The notes under the pieces were generated by a model that saw only the letters and a list, made by a program, of their open reading frames with translations, had not been told where the DNA came from and searched no databases. DNA of 5,558 nt from IMG/VR virus record IMGVR_UViG_2711768068_000018, positions 1 through 5,558 of that record. One strand, given 5' to 3'. The DNA comes from a virus. Lineage: Duplodnaviria; Heunggongvirae; Uroviricota; Caudoviricetes. Both the position numbers and the translations under genes were made by a program. Positions 1 to 5,558 of this stretch are shown here, in pieces. Position 1 is the first letter of the stretch. Each line of letters opens with the position of its first letter.

Positions 1-152
1 ACCCAGACACGCAGAGTCTCCGGCGTACAGCCAATCTTTGGAGCAATGGAACAAATTGTCGCCCATTGTGAGTCATATTCGCCCTGACTTTCCAGAACCA
101 TACGGGCTGCCCGTTGACGGACTTCAGGGGAAAAACGAGTATTTTTAGTCAT
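1..152 (-). CDS. IS3-family transposase OrfA, N-terminal part (partial, runs off window)
   Basis: Hand translation of the reverse strand from ATG at 152-150: [50 protein letters not shown]..., matching the recalled N-terminus of IS629/IS1203-type OrfA (HTH region). A GAGG-type RBS lies upstream on the minus strand (gagaaagaggtaaacagg before ATG). Not in the ORF track because it has no stop within the window. Confidence 0.8.
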
Positions 153-206
153 CCTGTTTACCTCTTTCTCAGGAAGTTTAGTCTCCAGGATTCCCGGGGC
201 GGTTCA
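1..206 (-). mobile_element. IS3-family insertion sequence (IS629/IS1203-like), left end only; element continues beyond the window start
   Basis: Minus-strand OrfA starts at 152 and runs off the window. Plus-strand 201-206 GGTTCA is the reverse complement of the TGAACC terminus of IS3-family inverted repeats (minus strand reads TGAACCGCCCCGGGAATCCTGGAG...), so the element/flank junction is placed at 206/207. Family assignment is from recalled similarity, not a search. Confidence 0.7.
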
Positions 207-298
207 TTTGCAGGAACTTATTTTTCACAGACAGCAATGATGCCTGTCAATATATTATTAATATGCGGATTGTTTCAGTTACAGATGCTTTATTAAGG

Positions 299-340
299 AA
301 AAAACAGCCAGCACTGACTTTCGGTGGAGAGGTGCTGGCT
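299..340 (-). terminator. Putative intrinsic terminator acting on minus-strand transcripts
   Basis: Perfect 9-bp inverted repeat 306-314 (AGCCAGCAC) / 332-340 (GTGCTGGCT), with a possible inner 5-bp extension (318-322 / 327-331) around a GGTG loop. On the minus strand it is followed by a run of six T (plus-strand A run 299-304). Confidence 0.4.
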
Positions 341-475
341 CAAAAGGATAGTTGGATTTCACATGATACTTATATCTGGCAGTACATTTTCTGACAGACA
401 GTGACGGGGGGTGTCAAGATATTGTGTCATTTATAACCTGAGTCAGGGGGGGCCCCTATTAAGTTGTCAAGCATG

Positions 476-1672
476 TTATGACGCCTGCGGGGTATAAAAA
501 GTCCCGTCGCGCATCATGGCGAACAGAACGTCGCAGCGTCGTCTCGCCAGGGCGATAAGCGCCTGATTGTGTCGTTTTCCCTGACTCATTTTGCGGGTGT
601 AGTAAGCCCTGGAGAGCGGATCCCTGAGCGCGGCGAAGGCCGACAGGAACAACGCCCGTTTGAGAGCTTTATTACCCCGTCGCGAGGGATGCTCACCGCG
701 TATTGACGAGCCGGATCGCCGAGTTACCGGCGCAAGGCCAGCATAAGCAGCGAGATGTGCGGCAGAGGCGAAGGCGCGGCAGGCGACCTCGGTGAGGAGT
801 CTGGCTGCGGTCCTGACACCGACTCCGGGCATACTGGTCAGGACCGGGTAAAGAGGGTGAGCAAGAACTCGCTGTTCTACCTCAAGCGCCACCTCGTCTC
901 TTTGCTTACGCAGCGTGATGAGCTGGAGTGCCAGACGTGGCAGTACTACGGCAGCGGCATTCGTGCCGGGAACGACGACGGTTTGTTCGGCCAGTGCCTG
1001 AGCTATGTCTGCTGCAAGGCGTTTACCCAGACGAGGCGCAAGTTTGCAGAGCTGGGCTGCCAGCTTCTTCTCACCCAGCGAAGCGAGTTTTTCTGGTGAG
1101 GGATATCGCTGGAGAAGATCGAGTACCGCCGGGTGATCAAGTCTCGGACCGAGAACGCGCTCCAGTGCCGGATGTATCTGGGTCAGAAGGCCGCGGATAC
1201 GGTTGCTGGCCTGCGTTGTCTGTGCGGCAAGATCATCATCGAAGCCGCAGAGCATGGAGAGTTCGGCGATTTGCTCGTCAGCCAGTTTCAGCGTGCGTAG
1301 CGCGTGAGGCAGGGTACGGGCAGCTTCGGCAATGATGGCAGCGTCACGAGCATCAGTTTTAGCTTCACCGGCGTGTAAGTCGGCTATGCGGCGCATGGCC
1401 AGTCCAGGGAGGTATCCGACAAGGACTCCTTCTGAGCGGGCAACGGCGACAGGTAACGCACCGATGGTAGCTGGCTGATCAACAACCAGCAGTATCTGAC
1501 CATGTTGTTTCAGGTCAGATATTAGCGACCTGAGTTTGTTTTCGTCGTTGGGTAATGCTTTATCGAACAGGCGTTTACCTGAACGATTAATGGCTACAGC
1601 GTGATGCGTATCTTTACCGACATCAACGCCGATAAAGACCTGGACGGATTCGTAATCGCTGGATTCGGTCAT
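476..1672 (-). CDS. IS110-family transposase / DEDD-type recombinase
   Basis: 398-aa ORF. N-terminal VFIGVDVGKDTHHAVAI is the hallmark first Asp motif of the RuvC-like DEDD domain of IS110-family transposases; the C-terminal region has YAGLAPVTRRSGSS, the conserved Ser-containing motif of the family's Tnp domain. AGGGAG Shine-Dalgarno 6 nt upstream of the ATG on the minus strand (1673-1690). Confidence 0.9.
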   Translation of the reverse strand: MTESSDYESVQVFIGVDVGKDTHHAVAINRSGKRLFDKALPNDENKLRSLISDLKQHGQILLVVDQPATIGALPVAVARSEGVLVGYLPGLAMRRIADLHAGEAKTDARDAAIIAEAARTLPHALRTLKLADEQIAELSMLCGFDDDLAAQTTQASNRIRGLLTQIHPALERVLGPRLDHPAVLDLLQRYPSPEKLASLGEKKLAAQLCKLAPRLGKRLAADIAQALAEQTVVVPGTNAAAVVLPRLALQLITLRKQRDEVALEVEQRVLAHPLYPVLTSMPGVGVRTAARLLTEVACRAFASAAHLAAYAGLAPVTRRSGSSIRGEHPSRRGNKALKRALFLSAFAALRDPLSRAYYTRKMSQGKRHNQALIALARRRCDVLFAMMRDGTFYTPQAS

Positions 1673-1689
1673 TCTGTCTCCCTTGTATA

Positions 1690-1870
1690 TGGGTTAACCA
1701 GATAACCACGGGGAGCAGGTACCGGCATCCACGTTACAGACGGTCCCGGCAAAAGTGCCTGACCTGACCCCTATTAGCGGTTACCAGCGCCCCACCAGAC
1801 CCGGTGACATCACCCCCCGGATCATGGACGACTGGGGGCAGTAATCATGCCGGGTCTGGCTGGCTAACAC
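1690..1870 (-). ncRNA. Candidate bridge RNA (IS110-type guide RNA) in the 5' leader of the IS110-family recombinase; hypothetical
   Basis: About 180-200 nt GC-rich non-coding leader between the putative -10 (minus strand TATAAT at 1879-1874) and the recombinase RBS, with no plausible ORF. In the IS110 subgroup (e.g. IS621) the bridge RNA is encoded in exactly this position. Structure not verified by eye. Confidence 0.25.
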
Positions 1871-1965
1871 CCCATTATAAGGGGTACGAATAAAGTAACG
1901 GGGCCGGAATGTTATCTGGCATTTTTAGCAGAGCCTGAATGCCATAATCACGGCTCCCGGCGTTG

Positions 1966-1999
1966 GCCGTCAGTGGGTGACACTGGCGGCTTTTTGTTT
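1966..1999 (+). terminator. Strong intrinsic terminator, tR'-like, upstream of the lysis genes
   Basis: 10-bp stem 1966-1975 (GCCGTCAGTG) / 1981-1990 (CACTGGCGGC, one G-U pair), 5-nt loop GGTGA, followed by TTTTTGTTTT (1991-2000). Its position just before the holin gene matches lambdoid tR' at the end of the short late leader (6S) transcript. Confidence 0.6.
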
Positions 2000-2045
2000 T
2001 CCTTTACTTTCATTTTCTGTCGGCGGTGACGGAGACATACATCAG

Positions 2046-2252
2046 ATGGAAAAAATCACAACGGGTGTGTCATACACCACGTCAGCGGTGGGGACGGGAT
2101 ACTGGCTACTGCAGTTGCTGGACAAAGTCTCTCCGTCCCAGTGGGTGGCAATAGGTGTACTGGGGAGTCTGCTGTTTGGCCTGCTGACGTATCTGACTAA
2201 CCTGTATTTCAAAATCAGGGAGGACCGCCGTAAGACGGCGCGGGGGGAGTAA
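2046..2252 (+). CDS. Holin, phage-21 S-like class II pinholin (68 aa)
   Basis: Translation [68 protein letters not shown] closely resembles recalled phage 21 S68 / E. coli EssD-type holins. Two TMDs (Gly/Ala-rich TMD1, hydrophobic TMD2) and a charged C-tail. The ORF-track start at 1977 is a GTG inside the terminator loop; ATG 2046 with a GGAGA Shine-Dalgarno (2030-2034) is the likely true start. Confidence 0.85.
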
Positions 2253-2256
2253 AGCG

Positions 2257-2616
2257 ATGAAGAAAAAATACGAACTGGGTGTTAAAGGGATAAATAATTA
2301 CCCGGATAAGATTACTGTTACTGTGGCACTGGAAATTGGTGGGTATCCGTCACTGTTGTTGCCAGATGTGGCGATTAGTCTTGACCGTACTGAAGGTGCC
2401 ACGCTGGAGTTTTACGAAGCTGAGGCGAAAAAGCAGGCGAAGCAGTTTTTCATGGATGTTGCTGCCGGGTTATGTGAAGGGGATGGTCCGTTGCCGGAAA
2501 AGCGGCCCATCATTTTAGAGGCGCAGGATGTGTTGATAACCTACAGAGGAAAACTACCGGGAATAATTACTGGTTCTCTGAAGACTACTGAAGACTTAAC
2601 ATATCCAGGGATTTGA
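2257..2616 (+). CDS. Hypothetical soluble acidic protein (119 aa) between holin and endolysin
   Basis: ATG 4 nt after the holin stop with a GGGGGGAG Shine-Dalgarno at 2242-2249, indicating translational coupling. No TM segment and no motif I recognise. This position is empty in phage 21 and lambda. Confidence 0.7.
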   Translation: MKKKYELGVKGINNYPDKITVTVALEIGGYPSLLLPDVAISLDRTEGATLEFYEAEAKKQAKQFFMDVAAGLCEGDGPLPEKRPIILEAQDVLITYRGKLPGIITGSLKTTEDLTYPGI

Positions 2617-2641
2617 AATCGATAAATCCTGATAAATATCC

Positions 2642-3175
2642 ATGAACGCAAAAATCAGATACGGCCTGTCGGCTGCCGTTCTGGCGCTGATTGGTGCAGG
2701 GGCGTCTGCGCCTGAAATCCTCGACCAGTTTCTGGATGAAAAGGAAGGTAACCACACCACAGCATACCGTGATGGTACGGGTATCTGGACCATCTGCCGC
2801 GGTGCCATCCTGGTGGATGGTAAACCTGTCGTCCCGGGCATGAAGTTGTCGAAGGAAAAATGCGACCAGGTTAACGCCATTGAGCGTGATAAGGCGCTGG
2901 CATGGGTGGAGAAAAACATCAAAGTGCCGCTGACCGAACCCCAGAAAGCGGGGATCGCGTCATTCTGTCCGTACAACATTGGTCCCGGTAAGTGTTTCCC
3001 GTCGACGTTTTACAGACGAATTAATGCAGGTGATCGAAAAGGTGCCTGCGAAGCGATTCGCTGGTGGATTAAGGACGGTGGCAGAGACTGCCGTATTCGT
3101 TCAAACAACTGTTACGGTCAGGTATCCCGTCGTGACCAGGAGAGCGCGCTGGCGTGCTGGGGAATCGACAGATAA
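2642..3175 (+). CDS. SAR endolysin (GH24 T4-type lysozyme family, phage-21 R-like)
   Basis: 177 aa. N-terminal weakly hydrophobic Gly/Ala-rich signal-anchor-release segment (YGLSAAVLALIGAGASA), then E35/D44/T50 in the spacing of the GH24 lysozyme catalytic triad (EGNHTTAYRDGTGIWTICRG). Overall collinear with recalled R21 and E. coli RrrD-type lysozymes. Confidence 0.92.
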   Translation: MNAKIRYGLSAAVLALIGAGASAPEILDQFLDEKEGNHTTAYRDGTGIWTICRGAILVDGKPVVPGMKLSKEKCDQVNAIERDKALAWVEKNIKVPLTEPQKAGIASFCPYNIGPGKCFPSTFYRRINAGDRKGACEAIRWWIKDGGRDCRIRSNNCYGQVSRRDQESALACWGIDR

Positions 3176-3314
3176 GAAGAATATTTTGCTGAAAAATGAG
3201 GTTTGCTTACATGGACGGATAACACGAAATCCTGCAAATTGGCAAAATGTAAGTGAATAAAGTCAAAACAGTTGTTTAACACTCAGGCACCGTAATGATG
3301 CCTTTGTCATTTCT

Positions 3315-3336
3315 GCGCATCTCACGCGCATCTCAC
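3315..3336. repeat. Perfect tandem duplication of an 11-bp unit (GCGCATCTCAC x2)
   Basis: 3315-3325 and 3326-3336 are identical, in the intergenic region about 110 bp upstream of the Ant-like gene. Confidence 0.6.
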
Positions 3337-3445
3337 AACACAGAACCTTTCAGGATGACCCTTGAGGATACCGGTTTGGCTGTCGGTGCCTTTCTGTGGG
3401 CTGGATTCCTGTGAGACAAGGTTCATCACTAAAAGGAAATAACCG

Positions 3446-4015
3446 ATGAATATGATGGCCGTGCCGTTTCACGGCAACTCTCTTTATGTAGTTAACCATA
3501 ATGGCGAACCATACGTTCCCATGAAACCTGTCGTTGCGGGGATGGGGCTGGCCTGGCAATCACAGTTGGCTAAGTTAAGACAGCGTTTTGCGTCAACTAT
3601 AACGGAAATCGTTATGGTTGCTGAGGATGGGAAACAACGCAATATGGTGTCCATGCCACTTCGAAAACTTGCCGGCTGGCTACAAACCATTAATCCCAAC
3701 AAAGTAAAACCCGAAATCCGCGATAAGGTCATCCGGTATCAGGAAGAGTGCGACGATGTTCTTTACGAGTACTGGACGAAGGGTTTTGTCGTTAATCCCC
3801 GTAAAATGAGCGTGATGGAAGAACTCAACCAGGCTTGTGCTGACATGAAACGGGATAAAAACATTGCCAGTGTGTTTGCTACCGGGCTGAATGAGTGGAA
3901 ACAGGTTAAAGCCGCGCATGTATCAAAAATCCGTACGCTGGTAAATGAAGCGAATATGCTGATTGATTTTGTCCTGGCTGATACAGGCAAAGGGAAAATA
4001 ACAAAGGCGGATTGA
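3446..4015 (+). CDS. Putative antirepressor-like protein (Ant/AntA N-terminal-domain type), 189 aa
   Basis: ORF with an AGGA Shine-Dalgarno (3433-3436). The N-terminal region (VPFHGNSLYVVNHNGEPYVPMKPVVAGMGLAWQSQ...) resembles, from memory, antirepressor N-terminal domains annotated in enterobacterial prophages. Domain family not confirmed by a search. Confidence 0.7.
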   Translation: MNMMAVPFHGNSLYVVNHNGEPYVPMKPVVAGMGLAWQSQLAKLRQRFASTITEIVMVAEDGKQRNMVSMPLRKLAGWLQTINPNKVKPEIRDKVIRYQEECDDVLYEYWTKGFVVNPRKMSVMEELNQACADMKRDKNIASVFATGLNEWKQVKAAHVSKIRTLVNEANMLIDFVLADTGKGKITKAD

Positions 4016-4026
4016 TGGGGTGGCTA

Positions 4027-4161
4027 ATGATATCAGATAAACTCATAACGCTGGTGAAGAGCCTCTGTGTACTTGTCGGCATTTCATTTTTAGTCATGCT
4101 GGTTGCCATTTTCTTTTCCACCGCCTGGCGAGTCCTGACGTTATCGGGACTGGTGGGGTGA
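4027..4161 (+). CDS. Possible small single-pass membrane protein (44 aa), not in the ORF track
   Basis: ATG 4027 to TGA 4159-4161: [44 protein letters not shown]. One hydrophobic helix. Tiles exactly between the Ant-like stop (4015) and the Rz start (4169); GGGG 6 nt upstream. Could be a chance ORF. Confidence 0.3.
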
Positions 4162-4168
4162 AAGAGAG

Positions 4169-4636
4169 ATGAACCGTGTTCTGTGTGTGGTGATTATTGT
4201 CATGGCGGTTGGCTGTGGTGCGCTGTGGCTGGCAACAAACCATTACCGTGACAACGCGCTCACCTACAAAGCGCAGCGCGATAAAAAAGCCAGAGAGCTG
4301 GAACAGGCGAATGCCACCATTACTGACATGCAGGTGCGCCAGCGTGATGTTGCTGCGCTCGATGCAAAATACTCGAGGGAGTTAGCCGATGCGAGAGCTG
4401 AAAATGAAACTCTGCGTGCTGATGTTGCCGCTGGTCGTAAGCGCCTGCGGATCAACGCCACCTGCTCCGGTACCGTGCGTGAAGCCACCGGCACCTCCGG
4501 CGTGGATAATGCAACCGGCCCCCGACTGGCAGACACCGCTGAACGGGATTATTTCATCCTCAGAGAACGGTTGATGACAATGCAGAAGCAGCTGGAAGGG
4601 GCACAGGACTATATCCGCACTCAGTGCCTGAACTAA
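4169..4636 (+). CDS. Rz: Rz inner-membrane spanin (i-spanin)
   Basis: 155 aa with an N-terminal TMD ([19 protein letters not shown]) then [32 protein letters not shown]...[24 protein letters not shown], collinear with recalled lambda Rz. AGAGAG Shine-Dalgarno at 4163-4168. Confidence 0.93.
4389..4574 (+). CDS. Rz1: Rz1 outer-membrane lipoprotein spanin (o-spanin), embedded in a different frame within Rz
   Basis: 61-aa ORF wholly inside Rz in another frame. Signal peptide plus lipobox (LVVSAC, Cys20) and a proline-rich mature part ([33 protein letters not shown]) that is nearly identical in pattern to recalled lambda Rz1. GAGGGAG Shine-Dalgarno 7 nt upstream. The true start may be Met6 (4404). 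Confidence 0.85.
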
Positions 4637-4998
4637 GTTTTGCTGATGCGCCGTATCGTCGCCGTATTCCTGCATTAACAGAGACCGCAGCCCGACAGGG
4701 AGACTCCTCTGCGAGAGTGTGCGGGGATAATCAAAAACGATACACACCGGGGTTTACCGCGTAAACGGAGCGCGGCGTTCTCCCCTCATGGTCGCCCGTC
4801 CGGTGCGATGGTGGAAGAAACTGGAATCTGTTCAATAAAAAAACTGCCGTGTTGGAGTCACAGCAGTAATGTACTGATTGGGTAGAAGATTATTATTGTT
4901 ATGCTTTATTCTTATTCTATATGGCTGATTATTTCAATTCGGAATTAATACAGCTAATGTCTGTGAGTTTTTATAAATTCAGCAATATAAAGAAATAG

Positions 4999-5226
4999 TT
5001 ATATGAACAGCCATCGCAGAGCATACTGTGTATCATTCTTTTTTATAGTCAACTGACGGGCATATTTTATGTCTGCTGCCAGCTCCCGGCGGCAAGATTC
5101 AATGACCCACGCAGAAAAATTTTCTGAACCTTTCTGGTCAAGAGCGATGTTAATTTGTTCAATCATCTGGTTTGGAAATCGGATGTTGCGGGTTGTTGTT
5201 CTGCGGGGCCGGTTTTTCGATGACAT
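4999..5226 (-). CDS. Small DUF3950/YlcI-YnfO-like protein, possible ribbon-helix-helix DNA-binding fold (75 aa)
   Basis: MSSKNRPRRTTTRNIRFPNQMIEQINIALDQKGSENFSAWVIESCRREL... resembles recalled YlcI/YnfO-family small prophage proteins found beside terminase genes. AGAGGA-type Shine-Dalgarno on the minus strand just upstream of the ATG at 5226. Confidence 0.65.
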   Translation of the reverse strand: MSSKNRPRRTTTRNIRFPNQMIEQINIALDQKGSENFSAWVIESCRRELAADIKYARQLTIKKNDTQYALRWLFI

Positions 5227-5267
5227 TTTCTTTCCTCTGGTGACAAGCTATATGGCGAGGATTTTAC

Positions 5268-5558
5268 ATGGCTGTGCTTCGTACGTTACCGGGCAGAATC
5301 AAAACTCTGAACACCCGGCGGGTGAATATTCTGAAGGGTGAACAGCGTCGTGTCAGTGGCAGTGCACGTGTTTCCCTCAAGCGTCATATCTGGCTCAGGG
5401 ATGCCGGGCAGTGCTGTCTCTGTGGTCGTGTGGTTGACCTCTGTGACAGTGAACTCGATCACCGCATTGCACTTCAGTTCGGTGGTGGTAATGAGGAGAC
5501 GAATCTCTGGACGCTCTGTACCGAATGCCATCGACAAAAGTCTGCTCGTGAAGCGGCG
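5268..5558 (+). CDS. HNH endonuclease, phage packaging-associated type; 5' part, runs off window end
   Basis: Hand translation from ATG 5268 (GAGGA Shine-Dalgarno 5257-5261) gives 97 codons with no stop: MAVLRTLPGRIKTLNTRRVNILKGEQRRVSGSARVSLKRHIWLRDAGQCCLCGRVVDLCDSELDHRIALQFGGGNEETNLWTLCTECHRQKSAREA. CxxC...DH...N...CxxCH is the canonical HNH zinc-finger nuclease motif. Missing from the ORF track only because it has no stop within the window. Confidence 0.85.
   Translation, partial: MAVLRTLPGRIKTLNTRRVNILKGEQRRVSGSARVSLKRHIWLRDAGQCCLCGRVVDLCDSELDHRIALQFGGGNEETNLWTLCTECHRQKSAREAA

Follow-up and report, generated by a model that had tools for sequence, protein, structure and literature searches.

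Why does a gene of the antirepressor type stand inside the lysis cassette of a lambdoid prophage, and what occupies the long non-coding gap in front of it? Both questions are raised by a stretch of 5,558 nucleotides (nt) from a phage of the class Caudoviricetes (IMG/VR record IMGVR_UViG_2711768068_000018, positions 1–5,558; hereafter the window), which is the late region of a Shiga-toxin (Stx)-type lambdoid prophage. On its plus strand, an ant-like open reading frame (ORF) of 189 amino acids (3446–4015), described as a 'phage antirepressor N-terminal domain-containing protein', lies between the endolysin gene R (2642–3175) and the spanin genes Rz/Rz1, and is preceded by a gap of 270 nt (3176–3445) that contains a perfect 11-bp tandem repeat (3315–3336). 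An initial annotation had pointed out this gene order, the non-coding gap and the repeat, and all three were confirmed. It had further read the layout as an independently regulated moron, which is not borne out. The gap is a composite of the trailer of R, a weak terminator-like hairpin and a conserved leader RNA of ~130 nt. According to the best explanation, which is drawn from sequence comparison and which we consider probable, the ant-like gene would be the cargo of a late-operon accessory cassette whose leader gates access to the Shine-Dalgarno (SD) sequence. The idea of a dedicated regulatory region upstream of the gene is thereby supported.

Structure of the gap and its leader RNA

A coding function of the gap was considered and rejected. 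The longest plus-strand ORF lying wholly within 3176–3445 has 39 amino acids and no substantial ORF is found on this strand; among relatives, the 3′ half of the gap varies through frame-breaking insertions and deletions of 1 and 2 nt together with compensatory base changes, which is not a codon-like pattern. The first ~95–110 nt (3176–3285, plus strand) are assigned to the R side and not to the ant cassette, because the same trailer also follows R in phage H-19B, which possesses R and Rz without ant; the alignment with H-19B extends to about position 3270 and then diverges. The weak terminator-like hairpin (3286–3312, plus strand) is formed by GGCACC and GAUGCC with one C-A mismatch (3286–3302), followed by an interrupted U-run, UUUGUCAUUU. 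In one related variant (L040), a perfect GGCACC/GGUGCC stem is located at the terminator position. A terminator-like hairpin follows the R trailer in both the window and H-19B, and the trailer could be an RNA that stems from the endolysin transcript's 3′ untranslated region.

The leader extends on the plus strand from a hairpin, P0, to the base before the ant start codon (3314–3445), and is supported by a covariance model and by covariation. P0 (3314–3330) has a stem of 3315–3318/3326–3329, extended by the pair U3314–A3330, and a 7-nt loop, AUCUCAC; 98.2% of its alignment cells are paired, and GCGU/ACGC and GUGC/GCAC variants preserve the pairing. The loop segment UCUCAC (3320–3325) pairs with GUGAGA (3411–3416) to form a pseudoknot, K (3320–3416, plus strand). 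Across relatives, the P0-loop UCNCAC is complementary to a GUGNGA located ~90 nt downstream, and the central pair of K is seen in all four Watson-Crick types (UA 33, GC 22, AU 11 and CG 2), K being absent from the model that built the alignment. Diverged copies carry other complementary sequences at these positions, namely CGCCCG/CGGGCG, GCCCAG/CUGGGC, CCGAAA/UUUCGG and CUGACGUA/UACGUCAG. A simple hairpin, P4 (CCUGUGNGACAAGG), was dropped in favour of K because its variable N covaries with the P0 loop.

The tandem repeat finds its explanation in K. Tandem Repeats Finder (TRF) reports the unit GCGCATCTCAC in 2.0 copies at 3315–3336 with a 100% match and a score of 44. By our estimate about 5558 × 4^-11 = 0.001 such repeats would be expected by chance in the window, so that the repeat did not arise by chance. 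The repeat is not kept as a repeat in relatives. What is conserved is GCGC-N7-GCGC, consisting of the first copy and the GCGC of the second, which together make up P0 (3315–3329); the second ATCTCAC (3330–3336) is a linker that differs in most relatives, for example ATATTAAC, ACATCAAC and GACTTCTG. The repeat is not an operator-like element. It supplies one half of an RNA hairpin, and the loop of this hairpin is paired with a segment far away in the leader.

Downstream of P0, helix P1 (3339–3398) pairs CACAGAA (3339–3345) with UUCUGUG (3392–3398) and closes a three-way junction that holds P2 (3350–3354 with 3361–3365) and P3 (3366–3374 with 3383–3390), all on the plus strand. Both-side changes are present in 7/7 pairs of P1, with 97% of cells paired, and in 6/6 pairs of P3. 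The variants of P1 include CACAG/CUGUG, CUCAG/CUGAG, CCAAG/CUUGG, CCCAG/CUGGG, CAAAG/CUUUG and CGAGAG/CUCUCG, as well as CCCGAG/CUCGGG, CAUAG/CUAUG, GUCGAA/UUCGAC and UCAUGA/UCAUGA. For the P0/P1/P2/P3 fold in a model-derived alignment (A5), 91.5% of cells are paired and the covariation score is 0.259, both counted with the provisional P4 hairpin that was later dropped; slid partners give 0.03–0.085, and 0/500 shuffles reached the score. The structure is assigned to the plus (sense) strand because G-U pairs are conserved, with GU in 68/71 rows at one pair of P3, for example. The 5′ strand of P3 has another complement in the segment that directly follows P1 ('P3alt'), a pairing for which several lineages show compensations. 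Plain RNAfold of the leader gives a z-score of only -0.71, so that thermodynamics would not by itself have revealed the element, and a first RNAalifold run, made on a MAFFT alignment, returned no more than P0 and the pairing between the SD and its complement, the anti-SD segment.

This pairing is the center of the proposed control. The invariant CCUUUCAG together with the 5′ side of P2 is complementary to the spacer plus the SD, and forms helix S (3346–3436, plus strand), in which CCUUUCAGGAUGA (3346–3358) pairs with UUCAUCACUAAAAGG (3423–3436), the SD itself being AAAGG at 3432–3436. Its 12 pairs have 97.1% of their cells paired in an S-fitted alignment (model R2), and 8/12 are changed on both sides. 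Independent compensations preserve the helix: the Pantoea and Erwinia copies (L135 and L140) have GGGUGA/UCACC(A)C in place of GGAUGA/UCAUC(A)C, type B2 has GAAAGU/ACUUUC, and AAGCGA/UCGCUU and AAGUGA/UCACUU mend one mismatch in two different ways. The helix reads CUUUGGAAUG/CAUUUCAAAG in P22, and is present as 13–19-bp versions in Proteus, Hamiltonella and Xenorhabdus. The mean duplex energy of S is -11.7 kcal/mol for cognate strands versus -7.9 kcal/mol for non-cognate ones. A conserved base-paired structure with compensatory changes on the mRNA strand was thus found, as is expected of a cis-acting SD-sequestering leader.

The anti-SD segment has a second partner. In helix X (3343–3424, plus strand), GAACCUU (3343–3349) pairs with AAGGUUC (3418–3424), a decoy just upstream of the SD, by which the anti-SD CCUU is kept off the SD, and P2 sequesters the rest of the anti-SD segment in this SD-freeing fold. 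Helix X reads GAACC/GGUUC in type A versus GAGCC/GGCUC in type B, with a U-G pair in one copy (L136b). When S forms, the released strands of P2 and X (P2b and Xb) are complementary to each other and make helix Y, which accompanies S (CCUUG, 3360–3364, with CAAGG, 3417–3421, plus strand). All of X, P2, S and Y form in 12/12 diverse variants. The SD therefore lies inside a conserved helix, and a mutually exclusive pairing of the anti-SD segment exists, the alternative being less clear in Xenorhabdus. By nearest-neighbour energies, the nested parts of the window leader amount to -30.7 kcal/mol in the SD-sequestered fold versus -25.9 kcal/mol in the SD-free one, and the minimum free energy of the leader, -39.6 kcal/mol, belongs to a fold of the SD-sequestered type.

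Distribution of the leader and its cargo genes

The leader is shared by at least 150 phage and prophage loci of Enterobacterales and of one Actinobacillus phage. The window sequence at 3314–3451 shows 86–87% identity with Salmonella P22-like phages, where it stands after Rz and directly before genes of the Rha family or KilA genes; it is also found after the tail genes of a Klebsiella phage, before an HNH_3 gene in E. coli phage Dewey and before a KilA-N gene in the Actinobacillus phage. Viral contigs scanned with a pattern yielded at least 120 loci with at least 85 distinct variants. A covariance model (R1) built on 19 sequences scores 149.8 bits on the window (3312–3439). In a collection of one genome per species it matches 32 times, at 30 loci, and places the leader in about 30 species of Enterobacterales; this genome scan started from a P0-plus-anchor pattern with 96 loci, of which the 30 are real and many others are chance occurrences in GC-rich genomes. 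Almost every named host belongs to the Enterobacterales, among them Raoultella, Pantoea, Erwinia, Tatumella, Serratia, Citrobacter, Enterobacter, Arsenophonus, Symbiopectobacterium and E. coli. Upstream of P22 rha the model finds the leader with 48.7 bits, and weaker matches precede homologues of the ant-like (Ant-N) gene in Hamiltonella (48.5 bits), Proteus (36 bits) and Xenorhabdus (16.8 bits). The gap sequence of the window is itself present in 795/5426 complete E. coli genomes, at a median of 2 and a maximum of 9 places per genome.

In every locus the leader abuts the start codon at a fixed spacing with the SD within its 3′ end; the downstream gene starts 8–12 nt after the conserved AAAGG (158 loci). 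The cargo of these 158 loci comprises ~63 Phage_pRha genes, ~53 KilA-N genes with or without P63C, 11 HNH_3 genes, 11 of the P22_AR_N type and 8 T5orf172/MUG113 genes, the remainder being single cases, an ANT/KilAC protein among them. These cargo genes are unrelated to one another, and the leader is conserved independently of the gene that it precedes. Its upstream neighbour is mostly a spanin gene, and the endolysin gene in the Ant-N type.

Several particular copies deserve mention. Three matches come from metagenome-assembled genomes labelled Cellvibrionaceae, Bacillota and Collinsella (L157, L186 and L191); L157 and L191 score 71.2 bits, identical to E. coli locus L185, and L186 scores 61.0 bits. 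Since the three bins are from unrelated phyla, these matches are probably due to contamination by enterobacterial phages. In some prophages the leader is present twice on one strand, and each copy has a separate gene downstream of it (L135, 3516–3639 and 4843–4966; L231, 2856–2989 and 3972–4102; L029, 1108–1230 and 2193–2325; L136, 3161–3288 and 3559–3683; L009, 588–715 and 2504–2629), and in Hamiltonella an Ant-N and a KilA-N gene have one each. A diverged copy in the Actinobacillus phage stands before a gene that bears the annotation 'tellurite resistance protein'. The leader of L082 (2517–2645) is a natural recombinant with a 5′ half of the phi315 type and a 3′ half of the window type. One pair of P1 and the central pair of K are broken in it, consistent with recombination inside the leader, and it constitutes a natural test case for function.

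The distribution also bears on public annotations. In P22 (L226, NC_002371, leader at 39505–39650), the annotated start of rha, GTG at 39575 (201 amino acids), falls inside helix P3, and a family-typical SD, GAAGAAGG, with an ATG at 39645 (MNELIANHDFDFRQ...; region 39629–39647) suggests a shorter Rha of 178 amino acids. 'Hypothetical protein' coding sequences (CDSs) are placed over the leader in several records (L002, 2956–3147, VSe13_064; L004, 2955–3146, BH752_gp41; and the PA21, HUN/2013 and vB_EcoS_P22 records). Because of the insertions, deletions and compensatory changes described above, they are not regarded as genes. Correction of these spurious small CDSs and of the P22 rha start is one direct use of the present findings.

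Explanations weighed and known systems compared

Translational gating of late read-through transcripts by the leader is the most likely role of the gap. The cassette would consist of an intrinsic terminator, weak in the Stx-phage version, followed by the ~130-nt pseudoknotted leader, the SD and the gene. In the window, a consensus scan found no plus-strand sigma-70-like site in 2500–4700, which includes the gap; no -35/-10 motif common to the relatives was seen within or upstream of the leader, and no LexA box was seen by eye. In 136 of the 158 related loci, a canonical hairpin with a T-run, that is, an intrinsic terminator, ends 0–15 nt before the leader. Given that no promoter was found and that a terminator lies directly upstream, we infer that ant would be transcribed from PR′ by Q-antiterminated polymerase reading through the terminator, with no promoter of its own. 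The leader would then set whether and when the cargo is translated, with the SD-sequestered (OFF) fold as the presumed default at equilibrium. Translation might take place from a transient co-transcriptional fold, or after processing of the long S helix, or on some signal or factor.

Some observations weigh against this account. Helix X has essentially one fully compensatory change, and P2 is weak and, in P22, contains a mismatch. The Xenorhabdus member joins X and S into one continuous long helix, so that not every member gives evidence of a two-state switch. Relative to S, P1 and K form pseudoknots and could be present together with it, and the real fold may therefore be one compact knot and not a switch. 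As for the covariation, the counts for S and for P1/P3 derive from alignments fitted to those structures, and much of the covariation that separates type A from type B may stem from a small number of evolutionary events; the search patterns also demanded some of the invariant blocks and inflated their apparent conservation, with K, P0, P1 and P3 left unconstrained. The promoter scan, finally, covered sigma-70 consensus sites only.

What else could account for the element? The broadest reading is that of a riboswitch-like or factor-responsive multi-pseudoknot switch, a member of an unrecognised class of sensing RNA that serves as the common control module for Rha, KilA-N, Ant-N, HNH_3 and T5orf172 genes. 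We regard it as unlikely; if it were true, the RNA would respond to a specific cellular or phage signal, and might time the expression of possibly prophage- or satellite-inducing proteins in enterobacterial temperate phages, including P22 and the Stx phages of enterohaemorrhagic E. coli. A riboswitch proper, in which P0, K, P1, P2 and P3 would make an aptamer whose ligand, be it a metabolite, an ion or a nucleotide signal, would tip the RNA between S and X plus P2, is improbable. The ~115-nt multi-pseudoknotted fold with its invariant blocks and integrated SD does resemble translational riboswitches, and two mutually exclusive helix sets are both conserved. However, the junction and loop nucleotides of the would-be pocket are not the same in type A, type B and the diverged copies (one type has AUGAC as its P2 loop and the other has UAAGCGAG, and the P2–P3 junction (J2/3) and the P3 loop vary), and no conserved unpaired core is common to them. 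Pairing constraints that overlap account for the invariant blocks CCUUUCAG, CUGUGNGACA and CUAAAAGG, and the Xenorhabdus member has hardly any primary sequence in common with the others. None of the riboswitch models in Rfam matches, and the cargo genes give no metabolic hint. It is quite improbable, too, that the element is a separate processed RNA, either a c4/CI-like RNA, cut from the transcript, that targets the ribosome-binding site of ant or works in trans, or a ribozyme that severs the late mRNA by self-cleavage. Precedents for RNA control of ant genes inside operons exist in P1 c4 and in P22 sar (sar is annotated in P22), the leader folds into a compact pseudoknotted form, K and X look like loop–target interactions, and the long S helix could be a substrate of RNase III, whose cleavage would free the SD. 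Yet the element always abuts the start codon with the SD in its 3′ end, no conserved 3′ terminator delimits a separate RNA, no C4, IsrK or ribozyme model of Rfam matches, and the specificity of K has changed freely among all four pair types, which is what an intramolecular pairing would show.

The moron suggested by the initial annotation would be an autonomous unit with its own promoter in 3176–3445 and the repeat as operator, expressed in the lysogen and encoding a cross-inducing antirepressor. The long gap, the real repeat and an N-terminal domain in common with P22 Ant speak for it, and trans-acting antirepressors that induce other prophages do exist (PMC3121763). It is nevertheless very improbable, in view of the missing promoter-like site and the terminator immediately upstream. 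The repeat is not conserved as such and its first half pairs as RNA, compensatory and G-U patterns indicate selection on RNA and not on a DNA site, and the protein lacks the C-terminal half of P22 Ant. Nor was a terminator-like site found between ant and Rz (4015–4169), where a small ORF and Rz follow directly. Conservation at the DNA level only, either as a mosaic-boundary 'linker' for homologous exchange of accessory genes or as a small coding ORF, is the least credible of all, although one leader type before unrelated genes is what a recombination joint would produce, a recombinant leader does exist and CDSs have been annotated over the leader. Dozens of compensatory double changes, some of them long-range, preserve pairing, the G-U pairs are strand-specific, diverged members keep the structure and not the sequence, and the small indels break any frame, with no matching ORF in the window. 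A role in recombination could coexist with an RNA function.

Translational gating by a folded leader has parallels in several known systems. In P22 immI (Arc/Mnt, sar) and P1/P7 c4-icd-ant, as would be the case in the window, an Ant-type gene of a late operon is curbed post-transcriptionally at its ribosome-binding site. These systems, however, use trans-acting or antisense RNA, whereas the window element would be a cis-acting folded leader, with no arc, mnt or sar and no Rfam C4 match; P22 ant lies in immI and the window ant in the lysis cassette, and the leader also serves Rha, KilA-N and HNH_3 genes. The leader of the MS2 maturation (A) gene is a case of long-distance SD sequestration with a kinetic folding trap, in which translation occurs only from a transient fold. 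It is likewise a multi-helix 5′ leader of ~130 nt whose equilibrium fold pairs an upstream complement with the SD, as is predicted for the window leader. There is no homology in sequence or structure between the two, and the window leader belongs to the late operon of a double-stranded DNA phage and has an additional pseudoknot (K). Alternative folds of the lambda cIII mRNA and RNase III processing of the lambda N leader both set the rate of translation initiation, in genes and structures that differ from those of the window. The preQ1-II/III and SAM-II/V riboswitches are similarly compact pseudoknotted 5′ untranslated regions that contain the SD and have mutually exclusive pairings; the window leader differs from them in that it has no conserved ligand-pocket nucleotides and no Rfam match, and precedes phage regulators and not metabolic genes. 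As for the rha locus of P22 and phi80, P22 rha carries a leader of the window type. Henthorn and Friedman reportedly found in 1995 that expression of rha harms phage growth in IHF-deficient hosts; their study is said to have concerned IHF and the gene product and to have described no RNA structure. Such harm would fit cargo genes that need tight control.

Within the resources searched, the leader seems to be a hitherto undescribed RNA motif whose kind of function is familiar. Rfam 15, which includes C4 antisense RNA, IsrK, AgvB/AsxR, riboswitch and ribozyme classes, gave no match at E<=1 on the window and only chance-level matches on 3270–3470 (E 2.7–4.3, 11–14 bits), and found nothing on six loci with other leader variants. 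In the searchable literature, no description of the leader was found by sequence or by relevant combinations of terms; the main text of a 2023 catalogue of structured phage RNAs (PMC10690425) mentions no Rha, KilA or antirepressor; and the supplement of an Hfq-CRAC (cross-linking and analysis of cDNA) study (PMC4104026) contains no entry for ECs1213/ECs1214 or for matching coordinates, with a literature search by locus tag likewise returning nothing relevant. Two groups of small RNAs (sRNAs) were rejected as content of the gap: AgvB/AsxR are located downstream of the PR′ moron (stx) and their Rfam models have no match in the window, and PasA/PasC are located between nanS-p and the holin gene.

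The leader is present in much-studied temperate phages, namely P22 (before rha) and the Stx1 and Stx2 phages of E. coli O157:H7 and O26. One shared control element ties together Rha, KilA-N, Ant-N and other poorly understood phage genes, and offers a direct experimental handle on when and why these cargo genes are expressed. If Ant-N affects repressor function or the induction of prophages or satellites, the leader would be one control point of Stx-prophage behaviour.

The ant-like protein and its gene neighbourhood

Is the cargo of the window leader a true antirepressor? An antirepressor-type N-terminal domain, as the initial annotation had suspected, is indeed present: residues 5–113 of the 189-residue protein match Pfam P22_AR_N (PF10547) with E=1.4e-45, and residues 122–164 match a second domain, ORF11CD3 (E=5.5e-6). 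The match to PHROG 524, 'anti-repressor Ant' (E=2.4e-112), spans only positions 7–210 of the 317-position profile. With P22 Ant (300 residues), BLASTP gives 50% identity in an alignment limited to Ant residues 10–136, and the C-terminal half of P22 Ant (about residues 137–300) has no counterpart in the protein. This is not a truncation, because the P22_AR_N+ORF11CD3 form of ~188 residues is conserved as such across many genera. The protein has a P22-Ant-N-type domain of putative KilA-N/APSES-like fold; with the C-terminal half missing, the protein therefore joins the same guild as the Rha and KilA-N cargo. It is not demonstrably an antirepressor, and antirepressor activity and cross-induction are speculation.

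Nor does the genetic context point to immI. In the window, ant is accompanied by holin, DUF1327, R, Rz and Rz1, with neither Arc/Mnt nor the Pant and sar elements found in P22. The experimentally supported Ant of an Stx phage, that of phi24B, is another gene, located upstream of qut/PR′ and resembling the C-terminal part of P22 Ant; its knock-out speeds induction (PMC3064807). The two 'Ant' annotations of Stx phages, phi24B Ant and the product of 3446–4015, should not be conflated.

The position of the gene had been considered anomalous, which proved not to be so, given that the ~188-residue protein occupies the same endolysin–spanin position in Stx phages and in Xenorhabdus, Proteus and Hamiltonella prophages. 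The R-ant-Rz arrangement is real. It is an ordinary one, and hundreds of records of Stx phages already have it annotated. From R to Rz the window has 99.5–99.7% identity with Stx1a phages and with BP-4795, in whose record the ant-like ORF is ORF49 'ant', 'putative antirepressor protein Ant'; the Sakai counterpart is ECs_1214. Ant families were found in 126 of 279 Stx phages surveyed (PMC8136144).

The remaining features of the window are those of a lysis region. A P21-type holin gene (2046–2252) and a DUF1327 gene (2257–2616) precede R, which encodes a phage lysozyme of the signal-anchor-release (SAR) type (Pfam Phage_lysozyme, E=1.9e-24). Rz (4169–4636, plus strand; Pfam Phage_lysis, E=4.9e-50) contains the embedded Rz1 (4389–4574, plus strand; Pfam Rz1, E=1.7e-21). 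Upstream of the lysis genes, 455–1901 is an insertion of ~1.45 kb relative to Stx1_EH1995 that contains an IS110-family transposase gene (476–1672, minus strand) and sits in the intergenic region from nanS-p to the holin gene, between stx/PR′ and the lysis genes. It is in the nanS-p-to-holin region that a 2026 preprint places the PasA/PasC sRNAs. Between ant and Rz, a small hydrophobic ORF (4015–4161, plus strand; 48 residues from ATG 4015, listed from TTG 4012) matches PHROG 4906, of unknown function, with E=1.5e-30; in BP-4795 it carries the annotation ORF50. The ant stop codon and the start of this ORF overlap as TGATG, an arrangement suggestive of translational coupling, and a different small hydrophobic ORF occupies the equivalent place before Rz in H-19B.

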